From: Patescibacteria group bacterium
Lineage (GTDB): Bacteria; Patescibacteriota; Microgenomatia; UBA8517
Direction of reading: 5' to 3'
DNA: 64,000 nt
Assembly: GCA_022868165.1 (NCBI GenBank)
Contig: JALHYA010000010.1
Location: forward strand, 375 to 64,374
Shown here: piece after piece, positions 7,969 to 59,696 of the stretch
How the letters are laid out: each line of letters starts with the position of its first letter
How positions within the stretch are numbered: position 1 is the stretch's first letter
Notes under the pieces: model-generated
Seen by the model: only the letters and a program-made list of their open reading frames with translations
Database searches by the model: none
What the model was told of the DNA's origin: nothing
Made by a program: the position numbers and the translations under genes

Positions 7969-10900
7969 TTACTGCTTCACATCTATCACCCACCAATTGA
8001 AGGTCACATCAACATTAATTGGATTGGAAAAGCCCACGGTAAAGTAGCCCGCCCCCTTACTTTTTACATAAAGAACATTGTTGAGCGTAGAGGATGTTGG
8101 TGTTACATATACTAATGTATAGTCTGATATAGAAGGATTCTTTATGGTAATCTCCGAGACTCCTGCGTTGATTATTGCCTGTCCCGCGGTTGCGTTAGTT
8201 GTTATTGTCCCATTGATGTCAGCGGAGGCAGTTGCCGCTTGTACAGCCAAGATAAACTTATCGGCGGAAACGCTGTTAAATGTAGCCGAGCCGGAGGCGT
8301 CGATGGAAGCGGCCACGGGATTGTTGATAGACCGAACGGTCAGGCCGGAAGATTCGACTACGCCTGCAACATAGAGATTTCCTTCAATTTGAACGTCTCC
8401 GTTTGTTAAAACTTTGACTTTGCCGGCCATAATTTCGACAGGAGCCATTGCTAAAGATTGCAAAGAAAGAGGAGCGCTTAAGGAGTTTACAGTATTCAGT
8501 ATTCCGTATTGGGTATTTTGGGATTGAAAAACCAGGTCGGTACCGACAGAGATAGAAGTAGAAACAGAAAGCGAGTTTATCGCTGCCTGGTCTGTCACGA
8601 AGAGATTTTGGATATTAGCAATTGCCGACGACCCCGTCGCGGTGTTAGCGTTCCAAGTTGCGGCTTGGGCCAGAAGGTTTTGGTCTTGCTCGACTTGATG
8701 CAGGAGATTTTGGATATCATCGAGCGTGGTTGATTTAATATCATCGGCGTATAAAGTGCCGGCAATACTGGCACTACTTGTAACTTGTAACTTGTCACTA
8801 GTAACTTGCCCAGAGAAGCTGGCGTTCCCGGCAGTATCCACCGATGCCACTGCGCTTCCCGAAGCATTTTGTATTACCAATTGACCGGAGTCGGTACCTG
8901 CCCCTCCGATTTGTACGGCTACATCCGTCTGGTCAGGGAGCGGTGATATCAAACGGGTTCGAACTGTATCAATATCTGCAAGTGGGGAGATAATTTTATT
9001 AGCTGTTAGCAAGTTTGAGGTTACTTCCTGAACTTGAATAGCTCCAGCCAGAATATTTCCAGCTATCAGATTTCCGAAAGCACCCAACTCGTCGATTATT
9101 TGTCCGGCTTTTGTCCATATACTGTATACAATATTTTGTATACCGTATGCCTGCTGAGATACAATTTCAAAATCTGCTAAAGAAGGAATTACCGGCGGTT
9201 TAACATCCCCGTTTGGATTAACAGTCAAATTTTCATCCTTGATATCAAAACCGGTTGCGCTCGGGTTATCGTTGAGATTTGTCCAGGTCGTATAGTCAAA
9301 TCGTGGGGCGGTGAGCCTATATGAAACTGTTGTTGGCCTGGCAGTATATATAGATAGCAAGTAGTTTCGAGTATCGACATCGTACCAAGCCCTCGTATTG
9401 CCTGCGGGGGAGAGGAGAACAACCATTTTGCCCATGTTATTTTTAAGATTTGTGGTTTTTGAAAATAGCCACAAATCCGAGCCGTTCTGTGCGTCTTTGA
9501 AGTCAATTGAATGACGATATCCGACACCCGGCACAAATTCGTCTGTCGAAACATTTCCGGTAGTTTCCTCTTTGACTCCTGTCATTCCGGAAAGATAAGT
9601 AGCGTAGCGCGTGCCGCCGATATTATAGACAGGGTCAATAGTTCCTATATCAACTTTGCCGGTTCCACCGCCGATCGTAAGCATAGTTCCGGAGCCGGTT
9701 GCTGTTATGTTTCCGTTATTTGCAATTGTGAATTTGGTGCTGCCCGAAAACGAGGCTGTAAATATATCTCCGCCGGCTTGCTGATCGACAATTAATGCTG
9801 CTTGCCCGACGTTTCCAGTGTTAATAGGATTTGTAACCATCCAATTTCCGGCCGTCAGCTCGTGGGGAGTTGTTTTTTCATTGGCCGGAAAAATAATCGT
9901 TCCTGTGCCGGTATTGTCGGCTATTTGGGAAATCCCACCGCCGACTCCATCCGCACTATCGAGAAAAAGAGTGCCTCTGAATTCGGTATCGCCTGAGAAT
10001 ATTACCCAGTCTGTAGTGGAACCCCCAAAATGGTCGGGGATTGCACTGCCGAATCTAGAATAAGCCTGACTGGTGGCGGGGATTGTGCCCGGGGTCCAAG
10101 CGGCGCCAATCTGCAAAAATCCGGTTGCCGTTAAATCTCCGGCTTTGGAGACTACCATTTTTGTTACGGAAGAAGCAGAAGCGGTTAATATGTCTTGGCT
10201 TTCGGGCTGATTGAAAATTGCCAGAGCCTTGCCGGTAAGCGCACCGTCGTTGGTAACATAAAGTTTGGAAATAATGTCTGCCGTTGTCGTTGTGCCGATT
10301 CCGACTTGATAATCCGCATTGGTAGTATAAATAAAAGGATTAGATAGAGTCCAACCTGTTGCAGCACCTGCAGAAATACAATCTACCCAAGAGCCGCCCT
10401 GGTAGCAGCGGAATTTGGGCGTTCCCGATGAATTGTAGTAAACTGCTCCTGCCGTTCCTGCAGGGTCTCCCGCATCATTTTTAATATCCAAAGCTAGAAG
10501 GTCCGGATTGCTCGAACCCGCTCCGTCGCCGATTTGAATATGCCCCGTGTCTGCTCCGAATGACTCTAGAAAGATGTTGCCGGTTGTAAGGCCGCCTAGG
10601 GTTAAGCTTTGGTTGGCTGTTGTGGCCAGGTTTCCGTCGGCCGTTAGATAAGTTGCTCCTGCGGCCCCGGCAGAGATAGAAGCTGTCGGTGGGCTTGCTA
10701 AATCTACGTTTATGAAGGCAAACTTGGCCGAATCCGTAGAATTCCCGCCGATTAGAACATCTTCGGTAAGATTTTTGGGATAAATTACTCCGCCGTTGGT
10801 GGGAGCGGTTCCTTCCGCCCATAGACCGCTTGTAGTACAGCCGGCCCCCGAAGTATCGCAGACCTGGTTTGCGCCTTGATAAATCAATTGACCATGTATT

Positions 10901-13900
10901 TCTTTCCATTCAAGCCCGGAAAGTCCTAAATCCGTTACGTCGGTAGTAGAGGGGGTAACTGAACCCCCGGAAAGGGCATTAAGAGGATTTAGGATGATAT
11001 TTCCGGTTGTACTGCCTCCAATAGTCAAGTCATTCATAAGAGTGCCCTGAATGCTTCTGGCGCCGCCATAGAAGGTCAGGTTGCCCGATACGGTGGCATT
11101 GCCTGCAACAGCAAGTTTTTCTACCGGAGAAGTTGTCCCGATGCCGACGCCGCCGCTTTGATTGATATTTAATATGTCATCTGTACCGTAATGACCGAGA
11201 GATAAATTGTTTAGGTAAGCTGTGGCATTAGGAGTATAGGCCATATAACCTGCGGAATTGGCAGCAATAGATTTACCAATCCATTGCGTTAGTCGATTAC
11301 CATTAGCAAGGGCAGTTTCAAAGACACCCATCGCTCGATGGTTGACATCAGTTGAAACTACAACTAATGGATTTCCCGGCGTCGCCGTCCCGATGCCGAC
11401 GTTGCCGGCGTTGGTGATGACGAATCTTGGAGTTCCGGCTGCTGAGGCCGTAAAGATATCTTGGGATTCGGTCTGGTTAAATATGGCCAGGGCTTTGCCG
11501 GTTGCCGAATAATCGTTTGTGACATAAAGCCTTGAGGTGGCAGCGGTAACGGTGGTTGAGCCGATTCCTACATAACCCGAAGCGTTAACATACATATCTT
11601 CACCGTCATTACCCTCGTCAAAAATAATCGTTTCGCCGGACCCCAAAGTCACAAATTTCAGGTTTACCGTGCTTGGAGTCATGATGGATAGCGTGGGGCT
11701 GGTGTAATCGTAGGTGAGACGGGTAGTGCCGTCAAAGGAAATGTGAGTTTGATTAGCAGAGCCTATCGTGAATCCGAAACAGTCGGCACCACCTGAACGG
11801 GTTGAGTTCCCACAGATATATTTAATGCCATCGGTAGCATAGGCAGAAAGAACCTCAATCATATCAGTATATGTTTCTCTCTCAACACTTACAGAAAATT
11901 CTCCGGCGGTATCCGCTCCGGCAGTTACATTTCTTAAGATAAAGCCTGCTCTTCCGGCCTCAACCAAACTGCTCGCATTATCCTCAAGGTAGGATGATGT
12001 GTAAGAACCGATGTTGGTGGCCGCAGTACCGCCGCTTGTGGAGCGAGTAATTCTGGCAAGCTCTATCTGTGTATTTGTTGAGGCATCGTCTTTTACGATA
12101 TGGAAACCCGCAAGCGGGGAGGCCGTACCAATACCCACACGGTTGTTAAGCGCATCAATCGAAAGGGTATTGGAATCGAAGTTAAGGGCATTGGCAGCAT
12201 TATTCAGGGTTACTCCTACTATTTGGGTAGAAAGGTCAATGGTGGCAGCGTTGATGTCAACAATACCGCTGCCGTTAAGGGGAGAAAGAGTGATATTTCC
12301 GGTCGATGTACCTCCTATGGTCAGATTTGCCATATTGGTTGTAGCCAGATTTCCTTCTCCAGTTAGGTAGGTAGCCACATTGGCAGTAGTGCCCGAAATA
12401 GATGCTGTTGGAGAATTTGTGGAGTCAACATTCATAAATGCGAACTTGGCCGTGTCGGTGGCCGTTCCGCCGATTAGTACATCAACAGTAGAATTCATTG
12501 GGTAGAGGATTCCATTTGCATCATCCTGCGTCCAGAAACTGCTGCCGCCTCCGCCTGTTCCGCAAGCTCCCCAGCTACCGGCTTGTTTACAACGCATTTC
12601 GCCTGAATCGGAGTTGTAATACATTGCACCATCGGGTGCGGAAACAGGGTCACCGGCAGTATTTTTTATATCTAAGGCTAAAAGGTCAGGAGTCCCCGAG
12701 CCCGCACCGTTTCCTATTTGAATAAGACCTGTTGTTGAGGTACCGAACGCTTGAAGGTAAATATTGCCTGTATCAACTCCTCCTAAAGTGAGGCTTTGGT
12801 TGGCGGTTGTTGCGAGATTGCCATCAGCGGTAAGAAAGGTTGCACCGGCCGCTCCCGCCGAAACAGAAGCGGTTGGAGTCCCTGTGCCCACCATATTTAT
12901 AAATGCAAATTTTGCGGAATCGGTCGAAGTCCCCCCCAATAAGACATCAACCGTCGAATTTTTGGGATACAGAATTCCATTTACATCGTCTTGATTCCAA
13001 AGATCGGTTGCGCCCCCGAGACAATTTCCTGAAGTGTCGCAAACCTGATTGTTGCTTTGGTAGATTGTCTTTCCCCAGATATTCCTGAATTCCAAGGACG
13101 CGGATGTGCCCAAATCGGTAACATCAGTTGTATTTGGCTTGACAGCTCCACCGGCTATGGCATTGAGCGGATTGACAACTATATCTCCGGTTGTATCTCC
13201 GCCGATAGTTAGAATAGCCATTAGAGTTGCCCGAATATTTCTTGCGCCTCCGTAGAAAGTCAGGTTGCCCGAAACAGTGGCATTGCCGGCCACATCCAGC
13301 TTTTCTACGGGAGACGTCGTTCCCACGCCTACGTTTCCACCAGGCATAAGAGCCAGGTTCTGCGAAGCCGCGGTAATTATTTGATTCGGCCCTGTGCCGG
13401 CGAAGGTAATTCCGGCTCCAATTCCAGTTAGATTTATGGCGGCAGTATTTGCATAGGAGTTTGTAAGTTGGTTGCTCATTGAGAGCGTTGTCACGCCCGA
13501 TACCGCCCCGGCTGTAGTGACATTTAGAGCAGTCGAGGTTACGGCAAATGTTCCCGTTGCGTTGCCAATGGTAGTTGTGGCTCCGGCGCCGGAAGATAGA
13601 GTGGTATTACCACTAGAGTCTAGGGTAGTGAAAGCGCCCGTCGAGCGAATAGTTGCTCCGATTGCGGTTGAGTTAATGCCCGTAGCTGTTGTATTAAAGT
13701 TGCCGGCAGTAAAGAGGATATCGTTTGCTCCAAAGGAAACGGATGAGGCTCCCAATCCGGATAGAGTCAGAGCTCCAGACGTTCCGGTTAAGTTCAAAGC
13801 TCCGGTAGTTAACGTCAGGCCGTTACTGGCTGTAAGGGTGCTAGAGAACCTTCCTGTTCCAGTAACATCCAGTTGAGTGCTGGGTGCAGCGTTATTTATG

Positions 13901-16900
13901 CCGACTTGGCCGGCACTGTCAATATATATCCTACTGGTAAGAAATGAATCACCACCGACGGAGCCTTGGACATTAAAGCTACCACCGTTGTAGATATTCA
14001 AGAATGTTTGCGGAGCAGTTGTGGTGGTCTCGGCTCCAAGTGCAATATTGCCCGAGATTGAAGCAGTGGGATTGCCGGAATCGACATTTATAAATGCGAA
14101 CTTGGCCGTGTCGGTGGCAGTTCCGCCTATTAATACATCAACAGTTGAATTTTTGGGATACAAGATTCCCAGGGAATCATTTTGATTCCAATATCCTGTT
14201 GAAGCATTACAGTTTCCGCTTGCATCACAGACGGCATTACCACTTTGAAGCATTGCCTGGGCATAAAAATTGCGCCATTCTAGAGAGGCTGTTCCGAGGT
14301 CGGTTACATCTGTAGCTCCGGGTGTAACCGAACCACCGTCTACGGCATTTAAAGGATTAATTGTGATGTTTCCGGTTGTATCGCCCCCGATAGTTAAGTC
14401 ATTCATAAGAGTGCCCTGAATGCTTCTGGCGCCACCATAGAAGGTTAGATTGCCGGAAACGGTGGCATTTCCGGCTACATCAAGCATCTCCAGGGGAGTA
14501 GTAGTCCCAATTCCCAAGTTTCCGCTTGCGTCAATTCTGGCTTTTTCCGAAGAGGAGATATAAAACCGTATTGTGCCTCCTTGCACTAGGGTTCTTCCAG
14601 CTGAATCACCAAATGTTTGAATTCCTTGTTCGTTGGCGCTTATGCCATTTTGGCTGGACCAAACCAGCGCCTCGACTGTGCTTCCGGGATCGGTGACGTA
14701 CCCGGTGACCCAAGCAGGATCGTTGGGATCGGACGAAAGCGTTCCGATATTCCCATTTCCTGAAGAATCGGAGGTAGAAGTCCCTGTTCCCTCATCGAAA
14801 TGCCAAAGGGCTTTTGTATTGGCATCCGGAGAAAGTTTGGTTGTTTGAGGGGTAAAATTGGCGGTGTTACGAACAACGTTGGACATCTCAATCTCGTCAA
14901 TTTTCCCGTCAAAGTTGTCTTGAGGTGGCCAGTCACCGCCGTCCAGTCCGATTCGCATAAGTCCGTTAAAATAACTCGGCGTGCCAGGATCCCCTTGGAA
15001 CGGTTGGGATTCTATATTTCCATTGATAGCGAAATAAATGGTGTTTGTACCTGTATCTCTTGATACTTGGACGTGGGTCCATGTTCCTAAAGAAACTGTT
15101 CCCGTAGAGTTCATGAATCCAGCGGCATCCGACCAGAACCCAAAAGCTAGTTGACGGGAGGGGTTGATTCCAAAGTACCACTTTCTGGCGTAATCTGTTC
15201 CTTTCTTGTCGATTATGACTCGTGTAGATGCCGCGGTGGTGTCCAAATAAACCCAAGCTCTGATCGTCCAATCACTACCCATAAGGCGGTTAGTGGCGGA
15301 ATCGGGAACTGTAACTCCATCGTCCCCATCAAACTCTAGCGCATAGGGGTCGGACCCGGGTTTTGAAACCAGATTATACCGTGCTGCGTTGTTTGATGTT
15401 GTGGTTCTTGTAACTCTTGTGTATAGGCCGTCTCCGGAGGTAGTTAGCCTTATTTCTGGAGTTACCTTGGAAATTTCTAAATCAGATGCTGGGGCAGAAG
15501 TACCTATACCCACCCTAGAATTGGTGGTATCAAAAGTTGCAAATGCAGAGCCTGAATTATTAAGCACGCTTACATTTCCAGTAGTAGTTCCACCCAAAGA
15601 AAGAGTCTGTTTGGCTGTTGTGGCCAAGGTTCCATCAGCGGATAGATAAGTTGCGCCTGCAGCACCCGCAGAAATAGAAGCTGTGGGTGTACCTGAACCA
15701 ATTACATTTATAAATGCGAACTTGGCTGTGTCTGTGGCCGTTCCTCCGATAAGTACGTCCACAGTTGAGTTTTTGGGGTATATTGTTCCGTTTGTCTGGT
15801 TCCAAACATCATTTGCCCCAGCAAAACAGTTACCACTGACATCACAAACCTGATTACTGTTTTGATATAGCGTCTGGCCGTAAACGTTTCTCCAAGCAAG
15901 ACTCGAAATGCCCAGGTCGGTTACATCGGTTGCGCCGGGGGTAACCGAGCCTTCTGCGACGCCATTAAGAGGCGAAAGGATAATGCCTCCTGTAGAATCT
16001 CCTCCGATTGTTAAATTTCGATTGAGCGTGGTTTGAATTACTCCTGCACTATTAAGAGTTAGATTGCCTGCTATTGATGCAGTGGGTGTGCCAGAATCAA
16101 CATTGATAAACGCGAATTTGGCGGAAGAGGAAGAGGTGCCGCCTATCAACAAATCAACGGTAGAATTTTTAGGATTTAGAACCCCGTTTGCCTGGCCCCA
16201 CCAGTTTATTGCTGTAGCCGCAGTTGCAAAAGCCTGCCAAATTGTTCCATCCGAGAAATAAACCTGATTATCTGTTGAATTATATATAACCGAGCCTGTG
16301 CCGATAGCAGTTGGCAGAGCAACAAATCTTCCCAGCCTAATTTGGTCATTAAAAATTGCTGTTCCGTTTTTAACATATAAAGCTGCGCCTTCCCTTGGAG
16401 CGTTATAGCGGTTTAAGGTGAGGGTTGAGTATGTAGACATTGGTTTGTCGCGCTCATCAAGTGTCAAAGTTAATAGGTCGGCCAGAGCCGAACCGGTTTG
16501 AGTAATTGAGGCGAAATTGCCAGGACTTTGGGTTATTGTAAAATTTCCCGAAGTCTGGCTATAGCCTGTGACGTTGGAAAGTGCGCCGCCGGATGAGAGT
16601 CTTTGAGTTCCTCCCGTTGAAAGATTCCCGCCGATACCCGTATTGCCGAGCGCATCAACACTAAAACGGGTGATTGGTTGTGAGCCGCTTTGAAGCCTTA
16701 TGAGGTCATAACCAGTTGCTCCGTTAGCCACAATGCCATAAAAAAGCGAGCCGGAAGTCAAATTGGGTGCCTGGGCATTTAGGAAATTTTGGCCTGTGCC
16801 TTCAAAAAGAAAATGTGCATATCCGAAACCGTCTGGATTAATTTCAATATTTCCGTCCGAGCCGGTCGGAGTAGAAAGAGTCACTGTTTGGCCTTCAACC

Positions 16901-17745
16901 AAAAGATTTCCCTGTTTGGCGCGAATTGCGGGGGCCTGTGATGCCAAAAGAAGAGAACCGTCGTCGGCAATTACGGGAATTGTGCCCGGACCTGCCCCGA
17001 TTTCCGGGTTGGCGGGAGTGTAGCCTTGGAGATTGGAAGCGGAATTGGCGCTTGAAACCGGAATCCTGTCCTTGATTTCGGTTCCTCCTATGGTTGCGCC
17101 AAGATAAAGCTTATCGTTTCCGAAAAATACATTAGTTGGAACACTATCTAAAGCTATCGTAATATCACCATTTGTATCAGGAGTTTCTTGTTTTGTACCC
17201 GAAGTCCAGAGTGCGGTAGGGTCGTCGGGAGATTTATAAAGTTTGAAAGTTATGCTTTGGGCTCCAAGCGAGGCCGAACCGCTTGCGTCTTTGAGTGTCA
17301 TTTTGGCAAAAATTGTCCAGGGAGAAAGAAGTGTGGAAGTCGATGGTGCTTCGGACGTAGAGCCAGTTGTGGGTTGGCCGGGGCCACCGGTAGGCTGGGG
17401 AAGCTGAGTTACTCTGTTTTCGCTTGCGGGTGTAAACAGGAAGGGTATCGGAAGCTGAAGTTTTCGGGCAAGAAGAAACATAAGAACCAGTGATAAGGCC
17501 AATACGCCAAAACCGATGATTGTTTTTACTCCAGGCTTGCGGCGTTTGGGAGGTTCGAACGCTTCGCTTAAAGGTTGTGTTTGAACTAAGGGATTTTCTT
17601 TTATATGCCCCTTGTTGTGTGCCCAGCCGAAAAATTTATTCAGGCTGGCCATCTTGCGCTTGGCCGTAGTAAAACTTGTAGTTTTTGCAAGCTGGCCTTG
17701 ATATTGGGCTATTAAATCCGGTGATATGTAGGGTAGGTTAGGCAT
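7969..17745 (-). CDS. Giant (3258 aa) membrane-anchored surface protein. Short cytoplasmic N-terminus resembling the second half of an integrase SAM-like domain, one TM helix, a Thr/Pro/Gly-rich stalk, a LamG-like domain, at least five 330-aa repeats and a tail-fibre-like C-terminal region.
   Basis: Single uninterrupted ORF. TM TIIGFGVLALSLVLMFLLARKL. LamG-like 'WTIRAWVYLD...IYFAINGN'. Repeat unit 'NLTIGGDTTGNI..NPLN...VTPG.TDVTDLG.S.L.WRN.Y.Q.....N.VCD.SGNC....YPKNSTVDVLIGGTATDTAKFAFINV' recurs. Matching DNA repeats (ttataaatgcgaacttggc...) lie near 10695, 12430, 12895, 14085, 15705 and 16095. Confidence 0.85.
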   Translation of the reverse strand: MPNLPYISPDLIAQYQGQLAKTTSFTTAKRKMASLNKFFGWAHNKGHIKENPLVQTQPLSEAFEPPKRRKPGVKTIIGFGVLALSLVLMFLLARKLQLPIPFLFTPASENRVTQLPQPTGGPGQPTTGSTSEAPSTSTLLSPWTIFAKMTLKDASGSASLGAQSITFKLYKSPDDPTALWTSGTKQETPDTNGDITIALDSVPTNVFFGNDKLYLGATIGGTEIKDRIPVSSANSASNLQGYTPANPEIGAGPGTIPVIADDGSLLLASQAPAIRAKQGNLLVEGQTVTLSTPTGSDGNIEINPDGFGYAHFLFEGTGQNFLNAQAPNLTSGSLFYGIVANGATGYDLIRLQSGSQPITRFSVDALGNTGIGGNLSTGGTQRLSSGGALSNVTGYSQTSGNFTITQSPGNFASITQTGSALADLLTLTLDERDKPMSTYSTLTLNRYNAPREGAALYVKNGTAIFNDQIRLGRFVALPTAIGTGSVIYNSTDNQVYFSDGTIWQAFATAATAINWWGQANGVLNPKNSTVDLLIGGTSSSSAKFAFINVDSGTPTASIAGNLTLNSAGVIQTTLNRNLTIGGDSTGGIILSPLNGVAEGSVTPGATDVTDLGISSLAWRNVYGQTLYQNSNQVCDVSGNCFAGANDVWNQTNGTIYPKNSTVDVLIGGTATDTAKFAFINVIGSGTPTASISAGAAGATYLSADGTLATTAKQTLSLGGTTTGNVSVLNNSGSAFATFDTTNSRVGIGTSAPASDLEISKVTPEIRLTTSGDGLYTRVTRTTTSNNAARYNLVSKPGSDPYALEFDGDDGVTVPDSATNRLMGSDWTIRAWVYLDTTAASTRVIIDKKGTDYARKWYFGINPSRQLAFGFWSDAAGFMNSTGTVSLGTWTHVQVSRDTGTNTIYFAINGNIESQPFQGDPGTPSYFNGLMRIGLDGGDWPPQDNFDGKIDEIEMSNVVRNTANFTPQTTKLSPDANTKALWHFDEGTGTSTSDSSGNGNIGTLSSDPNDPAWVTGYVTDPGSTVEALVWSSQNGISANEQGIQTFGDSAGRTLVQGGTIRFYISSSEKARIDASGNLGIGTTTPLEMLDVAGNATVSGNLTFYGGARSIQGTLMNDLTIGGDTTGNITINPLNAVDGGSVTPGATDVTDLGTASLEWRNFYAQAMLQSGNAVCDASGNCNASTGYWNQNDSLGILYPKNSTVDVLIGGTATDTAKFAFINVDSGNPTASISGNIALGAETTTTAPQTFLNIYNGGSFNVQGSVGGDSFLTSRIYIDSAGQVGINNAAPSTQLDVTGTGRFSSTLTASNGLTLTTGALNLTGTSGALTLSGLGASSVSFGANDILFTAGNFNTTATGINSTAIGATIRSTGAFTTLDSSGNTTLSSGAGATTTIGNATGTFAVTSTALNVTTAGAVSGVTTLSMSNQLTNSYANTAAINLTGIGAGITFAGTGPNQIITAASQNLALMPGGNVGVGTTSPVEKLDVAGNATVSGNLTFYGGARNIRATLMAILTIGGDTTGDIVVNPLNAIAGGAVKPNTTDVTDLGTSASLEFRNIWGKTIYQSNNQVCDTSGNCLGGATDLWNQDDVNGILYPKNSTVDVLLGGTSTDSAKFAFINMVGTGTPTASVSAGAAGATFLTADGNLATTANQSLTLGGVDTGNIYLQAFGTSTTGLIQIGNGAGSGTPDLLALDIKNTAGDPVSAPDGAMYYNSDSGEMRCKQAGSWGACGTGGGGSSFWTQDDANGILYPMNSTVDVLIGGTATDTAKFAFMNVDSTNSPTASISGTTANVATYLTGEGNLATTNMANLTIGGTSTGNITLSPLNGSGIVDINAATIDLSTQIVGVTLNNAANALNFDSNTLSIDALNNRVGIGTASPLAGFHIVKDDASTNTQIELARITRSTSGGTAATNIGSYTSSYLEDNASSLVEAGRAGFILRNVTAGADTAGEFSVSVERETYTDMIEVLSAYATDGIKYICGNSTRSGGADCFGFTIGSANQTHISFDGTTRLTYDYTSPTLSIMTPSTVNLKFVTLGSGETIIFDEGNDGEDMYVNASGYVGIGSTTVTAATSRLYVTNDYSATGKALAIFNQTESQDIFTASAAGTPRFVITNAGNVGIGTATPGNPLVVVSTDVNHRAMGVFETALANGNRLTQWIGKSIAANSAGYMAYTPNATAYLNNLSLGHYGTDDILNINQSGGVGIGTTSPVEKLAVAGNATVSGNLTFYGGARSIQGTLMNDLTIGGSTTGNIILNPLNALSGGSVTPSTTDVTDLGLSGLEWKEIHGQLIYQGANQVCDTSGAGCTTSGLWAEGTAPTNGGVIYPKNLTEDVLIGGNSTDSAKFAFINVDLASPPTASISAGAAGATYLTADGNLATTANQSLTLGGLTTGNIFLESFGADTGHIQIGDGAGSSNPDLLALDIKNDAGDPAGTAGAVYYNSSGTPKFRCYQGGSWVDCISAGAATGWTLSNPFIYTTNADYQVGIGTTTTADIISKLYVTNDGALTGKALAIFNQPESQDILTASASSVTKMVVSKAGDLTATGFLQIGAAWTPGTIPATSQAYSRFGSAIPDHFGGSTTDWVIFSGDTEFRGTLFLDSADGVGGGISQIADNTGTGTIIFPANEKTTPHELTAGNWMVTNPINTGNVGQAALIVDQQAGGDIFTASFSGSTKFTIANNGNITATGSGTMLTIGGGTGKVDIGTIDPVYNIGGTRYATYLSGMTGVKEETTGNVSTDEFVPGVGYRHSIDFKDAQNGSDLWLFSKTTNLKNNMGKMVVLLSPAGNTRAWYDVDTRNYLLSIYTARPTTVSYRLTAPRFDYTTWTNLNDNPSATGFDIKDENLTVNPNGDVKPPVIPSLADFEIVSQQAYGIQNIVYSIWTKAGQIIDELGAFGNLIAGNILAGAIQVQEVTSNLLTANKIISPLADIDTVRTRLISPLPDQTDVAVQIGGAGTDSGQLVIQNASGSAVASVDTAGNASFSGQVTSDKLQVTSSASIAGTLYADDIKSTTLDDIQNLLHQVEQDQNLLAQAATWNANTATGSSAIANIQNLFVTDQAAINSLSVSTSISVGTDLVFQSQNTQYGILNTVNSLSAPLSLQSLAMAPVEIMAGKVKVLTNGDVQIEGNLYVAGVVESSGLTVRSINNPVAASIDASGSATFNSVSADKFILAVQAATASADINGTITTNATAGQAIINAGVSEITIKNPSISDYTLVYVTPTSSTLNNVLYVKSKGAGYFTVGFSNPINVDVTFNWWVIDVKQ

Positions 17746-27758: not shown

Positions 27759-27832
27759 GTCGGGGTGCCCGGACTTGTGTGCATAACCATTTCTTGCACT
27801 ATCAAGGCCGGCACAAGTTTTAAGTCGGGGTG
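27756..27832. repeat. 22-nt direct repeat TAAGTCGGGGTGCCCGGACTTG at 27756-27777 and 27811-27832. The second copy is the 3' end of tRNA-Pro; the first overlaps the ndk stop.
   Basis: Exact duplication read directly from the sequence. Confidence 0.55.
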
Positions 27833-27886
27833 CCCGGACTTGAACCGGGAACCTCTCGCACCCGAAGCGAGCGCTCTACCATTGAG
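27815..27886 (-). tRNA. tRNA-Pro (anticodon CGG), C1:G72, no encoded CCA.
   Basis: RC folds as CGGGGTG-T-G-GCTC-AATGGTA-GAGC-G-CTCGC-TTCGGGT-GCGAG-AGGTT-CCCGG-TTCAAGT-CCGGG-CACCCCG-A. Confidence 0.75.
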
Positions 27887-27889
27887 CCA

Positions 27890-27964
27890 CACCCCGATTT
27901 GGTGCCCCTGGCAGGAGTCGAACTTGCATCACCCGCTTAGGACGCGGATGCTCTATCCGTTGAG
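27890..27964 (-). tRNA. tRNA-Arg (anticodon CCT), CCA encoded.
   Basis: RC folds as GCCCCTG-TA-GCTC-AACGGATA-GAGC-A-TCCGC-GTCCTAA-GCGGG-...-GCAAG-TTCGACT-CCTGC-CAGGGGC-A-CCA. Confidence 0.75.
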
Positions 27965-27965
27965 C

Positions 27966-28095
27966 TACAGGGGCTTACAGCGAAATTATAGCAGGATTCA
28001 AGAAAACTCTCGACTTTCAGTCGGGAGATGAATTGAACGCTGATATGTCATTCTCCTTTAGAGGAAACCCCGCTCTTCAGAGCGGGCAGGATGTC
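27966..28095 (-). promoter_or_regulatory. Conserved module of about 120 nt upstream of a tRNA gene. Extended -10 'TGCTATAAT' lies immediately 5' of tRNA-Arg, plus two hairpins. Hairpin 2 also works as a terminator for the upstream PEGA gene: GCCCGCTC-TGAA-GAGCGGG then a T-rich run.
   Basis: About 75 percent identical to 59697-59815, with compensatory stem changes. The core 'CTTGAATsCTGCTATAAT' also occurs at 34337-34359 on the plus strand. Confidence 0.45.
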
Positions 28096-33089: not shown

Positions 33090-33118
33090 TTGACACACCT
33101 GAACGCCTTTGATATTGT
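33090..33118 (+). promoter_or_regulatory. Sigma-70-like promoter TTGACA-17 nt-TATTGT upstream of the HTH gene, overlapped by the inverted repeat AGTAC-N6-GTACT.
   Basis: TTGACA at 33090-33095. TATTGT at 33113-33118. Palindrome tagtacaaaaaggtact at 33075-33090. Confidence 0.5.
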
Positions 33119-33144: not shown

Positions 33145-33405
33145 TTGGAACTATATCATTTGGAGTACAACTACATTAAAACAATCATGGACGAGAGCAA
33201 AAAGAAAAAAGTCAGACTAGAAGACCTTCCGGATTTGCTCACCGTGCGTGAAGTAAGCGAACTTCTTAGAGTTTCGCCTTTAACAATCAAACGTTGGGGT
33301 AAGCGAGGCAAGCTTCCCGCAATCCGCATAAACTCTCGCGGCGACCGCCGCTACAAGAAAGAAGCTGTTTTATGGTTGTTGGGAATGCAAGAAAAGACAG
33401 AGTAA
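33145..33405 (+). CDS. Excisionase/MerR-type helix-turn-helix DNA-binding protein. The track start is TTG; an ATG at 33187 is an alternative start.
   Basis: 'LLTVREVSELLRVSPLTIKRWGKRGKLPAIRINSRGDRRYKKEAVLWL' is the HTH_17/excisionase-family pattern. Confidence 0.65.
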   Translation: MELYHLEYNYIKTIMDESKKKKVRLEDLPDLLTVREVSELLRVSPLTIKRWGKRGKLPAIRINSRGDRRYKKEAVLWLLGMQEKTE

Positions 33406-33471
33406 AAAGGAAGCCGTCCTCTGGCTCCTTGGGATGCAGGAAAAGACCGAATGAGGTAAAATAGCCTCGCA

Positions 33472-34269
33472 GTGCAAAAACTCACAATTGTTAAGCTTGG
33501 CGGAAGCCTTATTACGGATAAAAACCGGCCGTTAGTTTCCCGCGAGGCAGTTATTAAAAGACTTGCCGAAGAAATTAAATCTGCCTCCAAAAACTACAAA
33601 GGAAAACTGGTTATCGGTCACGGAAGCGGCTCTTTCGGCCACGCTTCAGCTGCAAAATACCAAACTCAAAAGGGCATAGTTAATCGAAACAGCATCAAAG
33701 GAGTCAGCGAAGTGGCGGATGTGGCCAGTCAGATTACCAAAATTGTTATAAAACAGCTTAGAAAAGCCGGTATTCCGGCTGTCGCTTTTGCCCCCGGAAG
33801 CTTTATCGTTTCAAGCGGCCAAAAACTTCAAGAGTTTTTCATCGAGCCCATCAAAGAGGCTCTTGGGTGTGGAGTTGCGCCTCTGGTTTATGGTGATGTG
33901 GTTTTTGACAAAAAACAAGGCTTTTGTATCTTTTCCACGGAGAAAGTAATTGGAGTGATAGTGGGTGAGCTTCACAACAAGTACAAAATCGAGCAAATTA
34001 TCTATTGCGGCATCACCGACGGCGTTTACGACGAGGATGGAGAGACGATTCCCCTTATCAACTCGAAAACTTTTGGCGCTTTCAAAAAAGCAATCGGAGT
34101 ATCCGGCGCCACAGACGTCACGGGTGGGATGATTCACAAAGTTCAGGAGAGCTTGGAGCTTGCCAAGAAATACAAAACGAGGGTTTTGATCATCAACGGA
34201 ATCAAGCCCGGCAATCTCAAAAAAGCAATTCTCAGCAAAAAAGTTGCCGGGACAAAGATATCAAAATAA
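33472..34269 (+). CDS. Isopentenyl phosphate kinase (amino-acid-kinase fold), GTG start.
   Basis: 'KLGGSLITDK', 'VIGHGSGSFGH' and 'GATDVTGGMIHK' align with archaeal isopentenyl phosphate kinase motifs (KLGGS, HGGGxFGH, DVTGGM). Confidence 0.75.
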   Translation: MQKLTIVKLGGSLITDKNRPLVSREAVIKRLAEEIKSASKNYKGKLVIGHGSGSFGHASAAKYQTQKGIVNRNSIKGVSEVADVASQITKIVIKQLRKAGIPAVAFAPGSFIVSSGQKLQEFFIEPIKEALGCGVAPLVYGDVVFDKKQGFCIFSTEKVIGVIVGELHNKYKIEQIIYCGITDGVYDEDGETIPLINSKTFGAFKKAIGVSGATDVTGGMIHKVQESLELAKKYKTRVLIINGIKPGNLKKAILSKKVAGTKISK

Positions 34270-34377
34270 TTCGTCGCTGAAAGCTGCGATTGAAGCTATC
34301 CCAATAATGGTTTCTTCCTCCCCAAATCAAATTGCAGCGTCTTCTTGAATGCTGATATAATTAGTGGTTGTATTCCC

Positions 34378-42846: not shown

Positions 42847-43288
42847 TTTCTGTTTTTATTCCCATGGAGCGGGCTGTTCCGGCTACGATTTTCTTGGCTG
42901 CCTCCAAATCGGTGGTATTCAAATCCTTCATTTTCTCCTTGGCTATTTCGGTTACTTGCGCATCAGTGAGAGTTCCCGCCATCTCTTTGGGAGTATTTCC
43001 CGAGCCTTTTTCGAGCCCCAAAACTTTTTTAATCATGGCCGAAACCGGTGCCAGTTTCGTGACAAAATCGAACGTGCGGTCTTCATAAATGGTGATAACG
43101 GCCGGCACGATATTGCCCTTCATTTGTGCGGTTTTTTCGTTATATTGTTTAACGAAATCCATGATGGCAATTCCGTGCGGACCAAGAGCGGTTCCGACGG
43201 GCGGAGCCGGTGTTGCCTCTCCGGCGGGAAGATTAATTTTTATGACTGATTTAACCTTTTTAGCCATATCAATAACTAAATTGGTCAC
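42833..43288 (-). CDS. rplK: Ribosomal protein L11.
   Basis: 'KINLPAGEATPAPPVGTALGPHGIAIMDFVKQYN'. Confidence 0.9.
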   Translation of the reverse strand: MTNLVIDMAKKVKSVIKINLPAGEATPAPPVGTALGPHGIAIMDFVKQYNEKTAQMKGNIVPAVITIYEDRTFDFVTKLAPVSAMIKKVLGLEKGSGNTPKEMAGTLTDAQVTEIAKEKMKDLNTTDLEAAKKIVAGTARSMGIKTENGKN

Positions 43289-43416
43289 AAGGTTCTGCGC
43301 ACTTGGCGCAGGTTCTTATGATTGATTTTACTTTCTTTGTTGCCATATTAAACCTTTTGAATTTGTAGGAAGTCCAGCTCAACCGGTGTTTTCCGCCAGA
43401 GGCGGACAGGCGCGGC

Positions 43417-44031
43417 TTAGACTTTCTGTATTTGTAGAAAATCTAATTCTACAGGTGTTTCCCTTCCAAATATACTTACCAAGACTTTTACTTTACCCTT
43501 TTCGTCATCAAGCTCGTGAATTGTTCCCAAAAAGTCCGAGAAAGGACCGTCCGTAATTTTGACGGCTTCTCCCACCGAAAACTTTGTCTTAAATCTCGGA
43601 GCGGGGGAAGAAACGAATTTTTGAATATTTGTTACTTCCGCTTCCGAAAGTGGGGTAGGTTTATTTCCCGCCCCGACAAATCCGGTAATTCCGGGAGTTG
43701 TGCGCACGGCGAGCCATGTCGGGTCGTCCAAAATCATCTTAACCAGTAGGTATCCGGGGAATATTTTCTCTTTGACCGTGGCTTTTTTACCCCCGCGGAT
43801 TATAACTCTATCCTGTGTGGGAACGAGAAGTTCGAAAATCTTACCCGTAAGATTCATTGTTTCGACTCTCTGGCGAAGTGTCTCCGAAACACGGGCTTCG
43901 TGTCCGGAAGCCGTATGAACTACATACCATTGGGCTTTCGGATCACTGGTTTCGGAAATAACGATGTGGCCGGGAATTTTCTTTTTCCCGGTTCCTCTTT
44001 CGTCAACTGCGGCGGGTGCGGTGTTATCCAT
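43417..44031 (-). CDS. nusG: Transcription antitermination factor NusG.
   Basis: 'WYVVHTASGHEARVSETLRQR' is the NGN domain; C-terminal KOW 'FSVGEAVKITDGPFSDFLGTIHELD'. Confidence 0.9.
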   Translation of the reverse strand: MDNTAPAAVDERGTGKKKIPGHIVISETSDPKAQWYVVHTASGHEARVSETLRQRVETMNLTGKIFELLVPTQDRVIIRGGKKATVKEKIFPGYLLVKMILDDPTWLAVRTTPGITGFVGAGNKPTPLSEAEVTNIQKFVSSPAPRFKTKFSVGEAVKITDGPFSDFLGTIHELDDEKGKVKVLVSIFGRETPVELDFLQIQKV

Positions 44032-47253: not shown

Positions 47254-48126
47254 TTAGTGGTATTTGACTACAAGCTGAGGTTTGTTTCCGTCATAGCCAG
47301 AATTTGAGGAATCAAAGAAGGCCTGGTCTGCATTGCCGTTTCCGTCGGTTTCGTTGGCAAATCGGAGTCTAAATTGGGAACGGCCCTTTCCGCTTGAAAT
47401 GTCATTTTTGACAGATTCGGTTACTTCGAGATCTTTCCATTCGACAGACGAATTTTTAGTGAGCGTTCCAATATTTGAAAAAATTGGCGATCTGGCGAAG
47501 TCATCCGAAGCTAGTTCGCCCCCATAATCGATGCTATCAATAATTAGATTATTTTCACCGACATATGGTGTTCCGCTAACACTTCTTTGATACATTCTTA
47601 GAGTGGCCTTTTCTATAGTTACACCCGATGGAATGGAAGAGAGGCTAAAACTTACAAAACCCCTTAATACGAGTTCATATGAAGGGACTCCAACAAAAGC
47701 TCCGTTTCCGACGCGAATATCAACGTTGTTGTTTCCTCCGTTATTGTTCGCTCTAAAGCCGTCAAGGCCGCTTGTTGAAGACAAAACAAGTGTTATGGTT
47801 GTTGGTGTTGGGGTGGGCGTCGGTGTATGAGTAGGAGTTACAACGCCAGTTGGAGTTGCAACAGCGGAAATTGTCGCGGAGAGAGAAGCTTCCTGTGTCG
47901 GGGTCGGGGTGGGCGTGGGTGTTGGGGAAGTTCGCTGTTTTGAGCCGAAAATGAAAGCTGCGCCTCCGATTACCAAAAGAGCCAATATTACCAAGATTCC
48001 AAGAAGAGTTTTGTTGATTTGTGCAGGTGAATCTGGCGAAGGCTTGGAGGCTTCCGGTTCTGAGGCAGGGATGACTTGCTCGTCTTCCACTCCCGACATA
48101 ATAGACAAGTGTTTATCCCAAGTCAA
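47254..48126 (-). CDS. Secreted or membrane-anchored protein with a signal-anchor, (TP)n linkers and a C-terminal beta-rich domain.
   Basis: TM 'LLGILVILALLVIGGAAFIF'. TPTPTPTPT and HTPTPTPTPT linkers. Confidence 0.55.
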   Translation of the reverse strand: MTWDKHLSIMSGVEDEQVIPASEPEASKPSPDSPAQINKTLLGILVILALLVIGGAAFIFGSKQRTSPTPTPTPTPTQEASLSATISAVATPTGVVTPTHTPTPTPTPTTITLVLSSTSGLDGFRANNNGGNNNVDIRVGNGAFVGVPSYELVLRGFVSFSLSSIPSGVTIEKATLRMYQRSVSGTPYVGENNLIIDSIDYGGELASDDFARSPIFSNIGTLTKNSSVEWKDLEVTESVKNDISSGKGRSQFRLRFANETDGNGNADQAFFDSSNSGYDGNKPQLVVKYH

Positions 48127-58780: not shown

Positions 58781-58854
58781 TGGCAGGGGTGGTAGGAATC
58801 GAACCTACGTTCGAGGTTTTGGAGACCTCCGGCCTACCACTGACCGACACCCCT
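58781..58854 (-). tRNA. tRNA-Trp (anticodon CCA), CCA encoded.
   Basis: RC folds as AGGGGTG-TC-GGTC-AGTGGTA-GGCC-G-GAGGT-CTCCAAA-ACCTC-GAAC-GTAGG-TTCGATT-CCTAC-CACCCCT-G-CCA. Closely parallels E. coli tRNA-Trp. Confidence 0.8.
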
Positions 58855-58945
58855 AAGTTTATACTGATTTTCTCTTGAATCTCCCTTGTATTTTATCCTA
58901 AGTGGCTAGTAAGCTCAAATATAGCTTGTATGATATATCATTATA

Positions 58946-59350
58946 TCATCCAAGGTTTTGGAGCGTTCGGAGGATATCTTTCCTGGGGGAAACATCTAGA
59001 ATTTTCTTAACGGCTTCCTTTAAAGCCTTCAAATTTTGCCACTTAGCGAGCTTGGAAATAACAAAACTTTTGTCGCTTGCCGGTATTTCGAGAAGTTGTA
59101 GTTTGATTCTGGATACCGTTTGTCTGGTTGTGTTTGTAAATTCGGCAATTTTATCTTGATTTACCCCTTCAGATAAGAGAAGCATGATTATTGCCCTTTT
59201 TCGAAGCATTTCCTGCTCGGTTTTTGTTAGAAGTGTAGAGAAAGTTTTTATGACTTTTTGACGCTCCAGGCTGGTAAAAATTGTCAATAATGCTTCTTGA
59301 AAAAGCTCGTTATTTTTAGAAGAAAGTTTTTTTCTGGAAACGTGAGTCAT
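58946..59350 (-). CDS. Small helix-turn-helix DNA-binding protein, TrpR/YerC-like or sigma-region-4-like.
   Basis: 'SEGVNQDKIAEFTNTTRQTVSRIKLQLLE' is a C-terminal HTH. Confidence 0.55.
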   Translation of the reverse strand: MTHVSRKKLSSKNNELFQEALLTIFTSLERQKVIKTFSTLLTKTEQEMLRKRAIIMLLLSEGVNQDKIAEFTNTTRQTVSRIKLQLLEIPASDKSFVISKLAKWQNLKALKEAVKKILDVSPRKDILRTLQNLG

Positions 59351-59622
59351 GTATCATATAATGATATATCATCAATAAGCGGATTGGCAAGGCTGGTGGG
59401 TTTTTAAACTTTTATTTAAGCTTGGAAGTTTCCTTGTGAGGCGTAACCTTTCTGCAGGTTCTGCAGTACTTATTTAATACCAGTTTTCCCTCCATATTAA
59501 TCTTATTCCGCTCTGTTATGTAGTTTTGGCTCTTGCAGACGGAACAAATCAAAGCAACCAGCTCTCTTGCACCTTTTTTTGCCATACGTTGGATATTCTA
59601 TCACACCTTGAGCTCGAACGAG

Positions 59623-59694: not shown

Positions 59695-59696
59695 GC

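Follow-up and report, generated by a model that had tools for sequence, protein, structure and literature searches.

In the window (the whole 64,000-nt stretch of Patescibacteria DNA that was analysed), a 72-aa HTH gene is followed, at its stop codon, by a second and synonymously recoded copy of its own 3' end. With a probability of roughly two in three, this second copy is an untranslated former 3' end of the gene, displaced when the gene recombined with a divergent allele or a cassette. The initial annotation had offered a displaced 3' end left by recombination as the third of its options, and it is the one favoured by several lines of evidence: i) mosaic identity with related genomes; ii) the recurrence of such copies in relatives; iii) cassettes flanked by gene-end repeats; and iv) a second case at nusG-rplK.

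The duplicated end of the HTH gene

The HTH gene (33187..33405, + strand) is predicted to encode a DNA-binding protein of the MerR / HTH_17 (excisionase-like) family, its product scoring above the curated Pfam cut-offs for MerR_1 (40.6 bits vs. 21.6), HTH_17 (40.2 vs. 27) and MerR (32.4 vs. 28.2). A promoter scan placed a promoter-like site of the gene at 33090..33118 (+ strand; TTGACA, 17 nt, TG-TATTGT), and this block is kept upstream of the HTH gene in the related loci L001, L004, L007, L020 and L034. The protein is very strongly conserved across Woesebacteria/Microgenomates (6,650 homologues at E<=1e-10): the best 120 of these homologues are 90-100% identical to it, with the single exception of P0060 (70%), and are 70-74 aa long, or 81 aa in cases where the start had been placed further upstream. 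The neighbourhood of the gene is otherwise poorly conserved and the DNA downstream of it is hypervariable; across contigs, an identical HTH protein is found with differing downstream genes (HicAB, GHMP kinases, ABC transporter or glycosyltransferases).

The working end of the HTH ORF (copy 1, or U1; 33355..33405, + strand) consists of the last 16 codons plus TAA and encodes KKEAVLWLLGMQEKTE, its codons being aag aaa gaa gct gtt tta tgg ttg ttg gga atg caa gaa aag aca gag taa. The relic (copy 2, or U2; 33404..33454, + strand) lies in the +1 frame relative to the HTH gene and encodes the same 16 residues before a TGA (aaa aag gaa gcc gtc ctc tgg ctc ctt ggg atg cag gaa aag acc gaa tga); the two copies share 2 nt (33404-33405). 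Reading and translating both copies to KKEAVLWLLGMQEKTE and a stop confirmed the gene-end duplicate that had been annotated after the HTH stop, but the repeat is one codon longer than the 15 codons given there, with 16 sense codons plus stop. An independent repeat search of the window recovered the same pair (47 nt, 72% identity, spacing 49), while an nhmmer profile built from 35 units matched only copies 1 and 2 in the window and thus no further decayed copy.

Over 51 nt the copies differ at 15 nt (29%) in 12 codons (11 transitions and 4 transversions), and 15/15 of these differences are synonymous, the taa/tga stop included. The earlier count of 11 differences in 48 nt is that of differing codons, which hold 14 nt differences, while its description of them as all synonymous holds. 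Synonymous changes make up ~18-19% of the single-nucleotide changes possible in the 51-nt units, and when 15 changes were placed at random, in 400,000 simulations per copy, the peptide was kept in 0. Protein-level purifying selection on both copies had been rightly deduced; it most likely acted, however, before the copies met and not on copy 2 in place, and the differences would be only synonymous because both copies evolved as working gene ends.

Copy 1 is of a codon type termed 'beta' (gtt tta tgg ttg ttg gga) and shows 2 differences each, over 30 nt compared, from copy 1 of L020 and of L033, despite the L020 HTH region being 76% identical to that of the window. Copy 2 is of the 'alpha' type (gtc ctc tgg ctc ctt ggg) and resembles the working gene end of L082 and L081. 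GC3 was 0.65 in copy 2, 0.41 in copy 1 and 0.52 in the HTH gene body, a base-composition contrast between the copies that is weak at this locus. A diversity-generating retroelement pair was rejected as an origin of the two copies: in such pairs mismatches are limited to template adenines and alter the protein, whereas here they are not adenine-specific (they include G-to-A, C-to-T and T-to-C where neither copy has an adenine) and all are synonymous.

The other two options in the initial annotation were a 1-nt insertion or sequencing error at the stop and a +1 frameshift isoform. Dropping t33403 does yield ...QEKTE-KKEAVLWLLGMQEKTE and a stop, as had been stated. Yet L018, a Logan assembly of SRR19116065 which may share the window's sample, matches the window at 100% identity along 6,246 nt, 'gagtaaaaaggaagcc' included, and a doubled C-terminus occurred in 0 of the best 120 of 6,650 homologues, all of which end at the first stop; with many analogous loci besides, the insertion or error was rejected. 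More broadly, a junction artefact, either an A-run sequencing error or an assembler chimera of two strain variants, would suit the short A-run at the junction and data drawn from metagenome assemblies of mixed strains, but it is extremely unlikely in view of the same sequence in that separate Logan assembly, of analogous structures with their own stop codons in dozens of JGI, ENA, NCBI and Logan contigs from different assemblers, and of the finding that no k-mer common to both copies is long enough to mislead a de Bruijn assembler.

We also regard it as highly improbable that copy 2 is translated, be it by a +1 frameshift at GAG-UAA-A (ACAGAGTAAAAAGG) that doubles the C-terminal segment or as a mimic peptide that modulates the regulator. 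Several observations do agree with translation: i) the peptide of copy 2 is perfectly preserved; ii) in several 'type A' loci (those whose second copies have homologous spacers) its frame runs uninterrupted from before the HTH stop, with a start codon available, candidates being an ATG from 'tta tgg' in L020 and a GTG overlapping the TGA in L034; iii) most spacers are 3n+2 long; iv) the nusG relic described below is in frame behind a single TAA. However, the GAG-UAA-A site is not slippery, as GAG cannot re-pair on AGU (the +1 codon mismatches tRNA-Glu), and it has no upstream SD-like stimulator; the window's copy 2 frame holds no ATG, GTG or TTG after the previous stop; the frames are +1, -1 and 0 across lineages and are stop-closed in L001, L031, L049 and L041; and no extended protein is present among the best 120 of 6,650 homologues. 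The 3n+2 excess is not significant (~0.14, our own binomial estimate) and partly reflects codon-length differences in the coding tail. Frameshifting, readthrough and a small ORF in the window were rejected on the non-slippery site, the lack of a start and the inconsistent, often closed frames of relatives, and with them the frameshift isoform that had been proposed.

Recoded gene ends in relatives and at nusG-rplK

About half of the sampled related Woesebacteria-type loci carry one or two extra copies of the HTH gene end, and some relatives have no second copy at all. The extra copies sit 1 to ~80 nt past the stop (spacers of 1, 23-27 and 38-80 nt) or flank inserted toxin-antitoxin cassettes, and their W-to-W offsets are 71, 74, 75, 77 and 113 nt as compared with 49 in the window. 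The inserts between repeats in L081, L050 and L031 are 0.5-1.5 kb: HicAB in L081/L084, flanked by a 54-nt repeat with 2 differing positions; a DUF6922+AbiEii cassette in L050, flanked by the gene-end repeat; and a 496-aa ORF (1.5 kb) between the repeats of L031, where a 26-nt identical core flanks the ORF.

As in the window, the recoding in relatives is chiefly synonymous. Codon differences in 18 distinct copy pairs from related loci were synonymous in 119 cases and non-synonymous in 19, and all but one of the latter lie in the tail (xKxx), which is variable among working genes too. The second copies of the L034 family show 2 synonymous changes and 1 non-synonymous change. 'Type A' second copies were found in lineages whose HTH regions are only ~76% identical, and their 12 conserved codons hold ~20 synonymous but only 2 non-synonymous changes (a hand tally). 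These copies are too intact for a vertically inherited, passively decaying relic; on the displaced-end reading the module must have spread horizontally or been converted more than once, or else have been under a degree of selection.

The same signature recurs within the window at nusG-rplK, on the - strand. The working end of nusG (43417..43458) comprises the last 13 codons plus TAA, encodes TPVELDFLQIQKV and lies inside an AT-rich patch which covers roughly the last 25 codons of the gene and reaches ~10 codons upstream beyond the repeat; GC-ending codons make up 1-3 of 15 in the final nusG windows, and GC3 is 0.14 in the working end as against 0.46 in the nusG body and 0.43 in the relic. This relic (43348..43389), in which these 13 codons and the TAA recur in recoded form, stands 27 nt past the nusG stop and in frame, and it differs from the working end by 11 nt, 11/11 of them synonymous. 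It bears an SD-like 'aaaagg' 7 nt before an ATG at 43346, with which a relic of the rplK 5' end begins (43317..43346; atg gca aca aag aaa gta aaa tca atc ata). That ATG is the rplK start in L113 and L119; the window carries 49 additional nt, followed by another, recoded start, the true rplK ATG at 43267-43265. A database look-up for the 144-aa L11 protein returned no record. The arrangement with the nusG relic is also present in L113-L119, which come from several samples, while L120 has one nusG end, with codons like those of the window's relic. By composition, the working end of nusG is apparently a short AT-rich foreign patch, and the relic has the gene's own codon usage.

These comparisons also bear on an in-place origin, in which a tandem duplication (e.g. 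by replication slippage) produced copy 2 and gene conversion kept it peptide-like, an untranslated copy being purged of damaging changes since conversion can move them into the working copy. Near-identical copies do exist in some genomes (1 difference in L033 and 3 in L041, of 30 nt compared), spacers are homologous across lineages, and in 'type A' loci the DRRY codons may survive, riddled with indels, just before copy 2, whose own 16 codons are intact. On the other hand, 29% divergence with zero non-synonymous change speaks against neutral decay after a recent conversion: if half of the changes had arisen unconstrained, the chance of their all being synonymous would be < ~1% (our own estimate). 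Within-genome copies are moreover no closer than between-genome copies (permutation, 181 of 720), and the AT-rich patch of nusG, extending upstream of its repeat, indicates imported DNA. This origin is therefore improbable for the window, and concerted evolution as a general rule was rejected, the within-genome copies not being significantly closer.

Mosaic junctions and the proposed recombination

Comparison with the closest relatives, the L034/L107 family, revealed a mosaic. From the HTH promoter to about codon 55 the window shows ~4 differences from this family, followed by an abrupt divergence at the KK codons; the UPPS-HTH block is 87% identical to that of the L034 family, the 16-codon unit ~79%. 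From 34327 onward the DNA is again 95-98% identical to the L034/L107 family, whose homology resumes at 34327..34345 (+ strand), just upstream of a 7TM_transglut gene, which sets the right edge of the variable segment. Segment 33404-34326 is an indel between the window and this family: a module, missing from these closest relatives, of copy 2 and an AA_kinase-family gene (33472..34269, + strand; isopentenyl-phosphate-kinase-like by Pfam). Mosaic identity, i.e. a conserved anchor beside a segment of other origin, is present both here and at the AT-rich patch of nusG.

The kinase gene follows directly after a partial copy 2 in L001 too, where the spacer is homologous to the native post-stop sequence of L019, a locus with neither kinase nor copy 2. 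A kinase search of GTDB genomes returned distant relatives only (<=56% identity), and in two loci with such distant kinases, L004 and L007, the kinase precedes an HTH gene that lacks a second copy. Within the window, the GAGG at 33453..33456 (+ strand; read in 'aatGAGGtaaaatagcctcgcaGTG') is the likely Shine-Dalgarno sequence of the kinase gene, and it is partly made of the copy 2 stop.

That overlap suits the idea that copy 2 is conserved solely because it serves the next gene as a nucleic-acid signal (promoter, 5' UTR or RNA structure), its peptide resemblance being a leftover of origin. The SD-like 'aaaagg' of the nusG relic, preceding the real rplK start of L113, points the same way, as do a scan that found no + strand terminator-like site from the HTH stop to the kinase start and a 'type A' stem that pairs the KKEA codons with post-stop sequence and shows compensatory changes (gaa/gcttc, gag/gcctc, aag gaa/cttcc). 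We nevertheless hold a pure signal to be very improbable: across lineages, second copies are free to change at third-codon positions but hardly change elsewhere, the opposite of nucleotide-level constraint, and RNA folds were no stabler than shuffled controls (z of -0.09 to -1.56), with no Rfam match in the region and no inverted repeat in the window. A known RNA family or stable RNA fold was rejected on these grounds, as was an own sigma-70-type kinase promoter within copy 2, for which a consensus scan found none.

Under the displaced-end reading, the conserved HTH gene would have served as a homology anchor for recombination with DNA of diverged relatives. A single event would have brought in copy 1, complete with a stop of its own, as the gene's new end. 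The joint between incoming DNA and resident sequence would have been made out of register, in the A-run at the KK codons, and would have left the resident last 16 codons behind, directly before the kinase gene that they had always preceded. Both copies would long have been working gene ends, in different lineages; copy 1 is proposed as the newcomer. The relic may have persisted because its 3' part supplies the downstream ribosome-binding region, and with it presumably a role in expressing the next gene, and because nothing selects for its removal. As to mechanism, we infer either single-crossover integration of DNA carrying a gene end or homology-facilitated illegitimate recombination, in which one end is joined via a homologous anchor and the other via 3-10 bp of microhomology, in the account of PMC6382021 (citing de Vries & Wackernagel 2002). 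The junctions lie at A-runs (taAAAAAGg, catAAAAAAg and cggAAAACA), which would fit the microhomology joining of the latter process.

At least three arrangements have the repeat's left edge at the KK codons, and a further set has it at the W codon; such recurrence hints at something more specific than random illegitimate joints. The last 16 HTH codons could, for instance, be an att-like docking site for small gene cassettes (toxin-antitoxin pairs or metabolic genes, for example) that each carry a gene-end copy and that enter and leave through site-specific or short-homology recombination; the cassette-borne copy would become the real end of an essential gene and so stay coding, and the window tandem would be the remnant of an array. 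Besides the recurrent edges at KK and W codons, this accords with breakpoints between close strains at unit edges, with the cassettes flanked by direct unit repeats in L081/L084, L050 and L031, with second copies that retain coding capacity across lineages, and with icd/e14, where an element-borne copy likewise ends the host gene. Even so, no integrase or recombinase was present among the called genes and Pfam hits near the fetched loci (for the window, part of its 64 kb); an IMG/VR scan for free elements with the unit found only chance matches, by which a phage attP carrying the unit was rejected as well; and the tandems of the window and of 'type A' loci have no cargo between their copies. 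The same signature at nusG-rplK, a locus without cassette traffic, implies that a general process is enough. We consider an att-like site doubtful for the window; a broader form, in which the last 10-26 HTH codons are a cassette docking module of Woesebacteria-type Patescibacteria, worked by an undescribed recombinase or by short homology alone, seems slightly less doubtful but still unlikely.

If docking holds, the window tandem, the 'type A' and 'type B' tandems and the repeat-flanked toxin-antitoxin cassettes would be states of one exchange system, and crossovers would take place at a hairpin and inverted repeat found on the unit edges. In 'type A' loci these edges read AAGAAAGAAGC / GCTTCTTTCTT, an inverted repeat that is absent from the window, and L001 and L031 carry GTTAGG[A/C] ... 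[A/G]CCTAAC. Integron sites were rejected: attC/attI are folded sites bounded by RYYYAAC and GTTRRRY core sites with IntI nearby, and here the core sites are either missing or, as in the L001, L031 repeat, ordered wrongly for attC, and no IntI was seen.

Significance and comparison with known systems

A recoded peptide repeat beside a stop codon need not signify recoding or error, and can instead mark recombination between diverged alleles. If so, gene-end relics could date and locate gene exchange in uncultivated Patescibacteria without genetics; they would flag the 3' flank of the HTH gene as a hotspot of gene content (toxin-antitoxin pairs, isoprenoid-pathway genes, glycosyltransferases) and would show foreign DNA being patched into core genes, nusG and rplK among them. 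In annotation, such fragments are better labelled gene-end pseudogene relics than frameshifted genes. Should the relics prove to be maintained docking sites, they would amount to a new type of cassette system.

Among known systems, prfB-type +1 frameshifting is alike in having a stop codon followed by a continuation in the +1 frame. At a programmed +1 site, the P-site tRNA can re-pair one nucleotide further on when a slow codon or a stop comes next (e.g. CUU-UGA); the window differs in having neither a re-pairing P-site codon nor an SD-like stimulator, and its frame relation is unconserved in relatives. In Rhs/CdiA toxin loci a new gene end pushes the old one downstream as an 'orphan' C-terminal module, and there too the displaced end keeps a short conserved upstream coding stretch, but the displaced ends encode different toxins whereas all copies here encode the same peptide. 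The 3' ends of tRNA and tmRNA genes are duplicated at the attachment sites of genomic islands, and partial copies mark past insertions. These sites share with the HTH locus a conserved gene end as recurrent insertion point and a hypervariable flank; here, however, the end is protein-coding, the copies are synonymously recoded as opposed to near-identical, and no integrase was found.

In homology-facilitated illegitimate recombination, the anchor would here be a very conserved gene (the HTH gene or nusG), and the joints lie at short A-runs. The process is known from natural transformation in Acinetobacter, S. pneumoniae and P. stutzeri, not from Patescibacteria, and would presuppose natural competence in this organism; here the outcome is a short duplication of the anchor end and not simply a gain of foreign DNA.

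A precedent is icd/icdC of E. coli K-12 (e14, phage 21), where prophage e14 lies between icd and the pseudogene icdC (PMC13626634, citing Hill et al. 1989, PMC210168). The icdC-derived changes in icd, as described in PMC13626634, are mostly synonymous with two conservative D-to-E substitutions. Both there and here the 3' end of a conserved gene occurs twice, as direct repeats with mostly synonymous differences; in E. coli, and on the displaced-end reading here too, incoming DNA replaces the end and leaves the protein almost unchanged, and the old end survives as a C-terminal pseudogene fragment. The E. coli copies, however, enclose a 15-kb prophage with an integrase, whereas those of the window are 1 nt apart with no recombinase seen. 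Mobile DNA between the copies, present in L081/L084, L050 and L031, is absent in the window, and with this one base alone between them a simple integrative-element model misfits, so that an extra deletion or an illegitimate joint must be assumed. By analogy, the HTH gene-end relic is best regarded as a variant of this known phenomenon.

The HTH gene end and its recoded repeat

The HTH gene (33187-33405, plus strand; 72 aa with MerR_1, HTH_17 and MerR domains) lies in the gene order MreB, WecG-type glycosyltransferase, undecaprenyl-diphosphate synthase (UPPS), HTH, AA_kinase-family gene (33472-34269, plus strand, directly downstream of the HTH gene and its repeat), 7TM_transglut and ATP-grasp. 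Elsewhere the minus strand of the window has a giant ORF of 3,258 aa (7969-17745) and, by Rfam, six tRNA genes in two clusters (27825-27974 and 58784-60105). Its last 16 codons plus TAA (copy 1; 33355-33405, plus strand) and a second unit (copy 2; 33404-33454, plus strand, +1 frame) share two overlapping bases, and both encode KKEAVLWLLGMQEKTE followed by a stop. These 51-nt units differed at 15 nucleotides in 12 codons, and 100% of the differences were synonymous, taa/tga included; the "11 differences" of the initial annotation hold for differing codons in its 48-nt frame, but not for nucleotides, of which 14 differ there. Only 18-19% of the possible single-base changes in the units are synonymous, and when 15 changes were placed at random in either copy, the peptide was kept in none of 400,000 simulated trials per copy. 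Thus the recoded, peptide-identical repeat first noticed after the HTH stop was confirmed as real and far beyond chance.

The HTH protein is extraordinarily conserved: 6,650 homologues were found (E<=1e-10), and among the best 120 of them all but one were 90-100% identical, with lengths of 70-74 aa, or of 81 aa if the start had been placed further upstream. The kinase, by contrast, reached no more than 40-56% identity in the nearest GTDB genomes. The relatives carried the database labels Woesebacteria, Microgenomates or Patescibacteria. One HTH homologue with a long N-terminal extension, P0060 (104 aa), contains LRVSPLTVKRWGKRGK twice as an in-frame internal tandem duplication, which is either genuine or an artefact of assembly.

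A 1-nt insertion or sequencing error at the stop, one of the explanations offered initially, is contradicted by L018 (Logan assembly, SRR19116065), which matched the window without a single difference across 6,246 nt, junction covered, and by the homologues, as a doubled C-terminus occurred in 0 of the best 120 of 6,650. Nor did a +1 frameshift producing a long isoform hold up: at GAG-UAA-A re-pairing in the +1 frame is impossible, and in relatives the second copy lies at different distances and in different frames, often closed by stop codons. Moreover, the frame of copy 2 in the window offers no start codon (ATG, GTG or TTG) once the preceding stop is passed. Copy 2 has no translation route. 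When tried on the window repeat, the models of a programmed frameshift site, of a retroelement repeat pair and of an integron site each failed every test. From the HTH stop to the kinase start, a sequence scan found no terminator-like site on the plus strand; no Rfam family matched the HTH-copy 2 region, and RNA folds of the region were not better than shuffled controls.

Gene-end copies in relatives and a mosaic flank

Loci of relatives (L-numbers) were retrieved by look-ups of identical or near-identical HTH proteins and by a metagenome scan with a degenerate two-copy pattern, and many had additional HTH gene-end copies; the second copy was absent from L019, L004, L007, L082 and L087-L103. 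The window and L018 have a 1-nt spacer with the kinase next. In "type A" loci (L020-L029, L033, L034/L104-L112, L036, L041, L048 and L051) the stop is followed by a 23-27-nt spacer ("cttctttcttgactcgcttcgcgcat" or variant) and 16 codons plus stop; in "type B" loci (L001, L031, L040, L049 and L050) by a 38-80-nt spacer, with a GC-rich hairpin in most loci, and the last 10 codons beginning exactly at the W codon. Elsewhere the units flank cargo: a HicA/HicB pair between two 54-nt units with 2 mismatches (L081/L084, 4219-4754), a DUF6922+AbiEii pair between 26-codon units with a 47-nt identical core (L050, 7761-8767), and a 496-aa ORF with no Pfam match between units with 26 identical nucleotides in common (L031, 671-2350).

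Across 18 distinct copy pairs, codon differences were 119 synonymous versus 19 non-synonymous, and all but one of the latter fell within the four-residue tail, which is variable in working genes too. Positions that are otherwise invariant changed rarely, and in second copies only (V to A in L037, A to T in L051), and truncated copies were seen in L001 and, as a third copy, in L031. Both features are what one would expect once translation has ceased.

At L036 (1890-2001) two HTH gene-end units were found with the HTH body absent within 1.9 kb upstream; an opposite-strand M16-type peptidase gene abuts the W codon, which suggests that the body has been lost or has moved elsewhere, the break falling at the "type B" W position.

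An 11-bp inverted repeat between the KKEA codons (aagaaagaagc) and post-stop sequence (gcttctttctt), with compensatory gag/gcctc and aag gaa/cttcc, was seen in L020 (3169-3245), L034 (6308-6445), L041, L048 and L098 (4169-4232); it also lies behind single-copy HTH genes (L098, L103) and is absent from the window. A hairpin of "gaa gcc gtc ctc tgg ctt c" is present in the window (33410-33428, minus strand) and at HTH ends of the same ("alpha") codon type as copy 2 (e.g., L081, 4169-4195). On the minus strand a T-run comes next, so that the hairpin looks like an intrinsic terminator of convergent transcription, for example of hicBA (L081), and its foot and loop coincide with the edges of the repeated unit.

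The 3' flank of the HTH gene is a hotspot for gene-content change even where the HTH protein is identical: contigs with the very same protein had unrelated downstream genes. The L034/L107 family differed from the window at only ~four positions between the HTH promoter and ~codon 55, diverged abruptly at the KK codons and regained 95-98% identity from 34327 onward (87% over the whole UPPS-HTH block). Between the KK codons and 34327 the window reads U-beta (copy 1), then U-alpha (copy 2) plus kinase, and the L034 family reads U-GKEE plus spacer, then U-beta', with the kinase absent; an additional breakpoint inside this family falls exactly after the unit ("tagcttcttt"). In L001, as in the window, the kinase comes directly after a second copy, here a partial one, and the L001 spacer is homologous to the native post-stop sequence of L019, which has neither kinase nor second copy. 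In the simplest history, an HTH gene would formerly have terminated 17 nt upstream of this kinase, and new gene ends, with or without part of their own downstream flank, would later have been inserted ahead of the old end.

In L004 and L007 the HTH gene is downstream of the kinase, not upstream; L004 (Microgenomates MAG) has a T-box-like leader "aaggtggtaccgcg" (3380-3760) 3' of the HTH gene, ahead of the next gene.

Relics between nusG and rplK

All window ORFs of at least 70 aa were scanned for a repeat of their last-12-residue peptide within 400 nt downstream, and the real cases were two, the HTH gene and nusG; a GV-repeat peptide (47888-47929) downstream of the ORF at 47590-47830 was rejected as a low-complexity simple repeat. 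nusG (43417-44031, minus strand) ends with TPVELDFLQIQKV-TAA, and the same 13 codons plus TAA recur in frame (43348-43389, minus strand) after a 27-nt spacer with a short hairpin. Working end and relic differed at 11 nucleotides (11/11 synonymous); the relic lies just ahead of an ATG at 43346, with an SD-like "aaaagg" 7 nt upstream of that ATG. The duplicated end was also present in L113-L119 (several samples and assemblers), and L120 (NusG 88% identical) had one nusG end only, with codon choice resembling the relic. GC3 was 0.46 in the nusG body, 0.14 in the working end and 0.43 in the relic, and GC-ending codons were 1-3/15 across the ~last 25 nusG codons, working end included. Thus the GC3 drop of the working end and the body-like GC3 of the relic indicate that the former is a short foreign patch and the latter native.

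Furthermore, an rplK 5' end persists in the window as a relic of its first 10 codons (43317-43346, minus strand) that is absent from L113, where this position is the real rplK start; 49 nt and then the recoded real start at 43267 follow (second start; whole span 43265-43346, minus strand). This relic opens a 25-codon ORF (MATKKVKSIIRTCAKCAEPCDQFSY). That two loci of very conserved genes have three gene-end relics between them speaks for a general process rather than for something peculiar to the HTH gene.

Proposed origin of the gene-end relics

In the best-supported reading, very conserved genes would anchor, by homology, recombination with DNA of diverged relatives, and the opposite end of the exchanged piece would be joined out of register. 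Joints inside the resident gene's last codons would be harmless because the incoming piece supplies a complete end with stop, and the next gene's translation signals would be kept, so that such joints would be the survivors. Both copies would have been working ends until brought together, hence the exclusively synonymous differences. A displaced 3' end left by recombination, proposed initially as a third explanation, is favoured by recurrence in relatives, the mosaic flank and the second case at nusG-rplK. Joints lie in A-runs (taAAAAAGg, catAAAAAAg, cggAAAACA) or immediately before TGG, which would fit the microhomologies of 3-10 bp that PMC6382021 gives for homology-facilitated illegitimate recombination. 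For the loci with cargo between the repeats (L081, L050, L031), a single-crossover integration of DNA with a gene-end copy fits equally well. The repeat, its recurrence, the mosaic flank and copy 2's lack of a translation route are established observations, and from them we infer the recombination pathway, the donor and the relic's role in downstream-gene expression.

Five points poorly explained by this mechanism keep alive another, rather unlikely reading, that the repeated unit is kept up as a docking site for cassettes: i) "type A" second copies have homologous spacers across lineages with HTH regions only ~76% identical, and a tally over 12 conserved codons gave ~20 synonymous versus 2 non-synonymous changes; ii) in a 30-nt comparison, the window's copy 1 had 2 mismatches each to copy 1 of L020 and of L033, and its copy 2 had 4 to copy 2 of L020, a closeness of both copies by which the two-unit module seems to travel or be refreshed; iii) the KK and W codons repeatedly form the edges of the repeat, either side of a GAAGCC...GGCTTC hairpin within the unit; iv) the "type A" 11-bp stem of KKEA codons with post-stop sequence shows compensatory changes; v) spacer length is 3n+2 in most loci, a bias that is not significant.

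Under the recombination reading, gene-end relics would serve mainly to mark hotspots of recombination and core genes of mosaic origin in uncultivated Patescibacteria, and to caution annotators. The window repeat is like the displaced gene ends of integrative-element attachment sites, but unlike these it has no cargo between its copies, and the genes called around it, with their Pfam hits, include no integrase. The cargo-bearing loci would follow the same logic as icd/icdC at prophage e14, where the element brings a replacement end and the old end persists as a pseudogene (PMC13626634).
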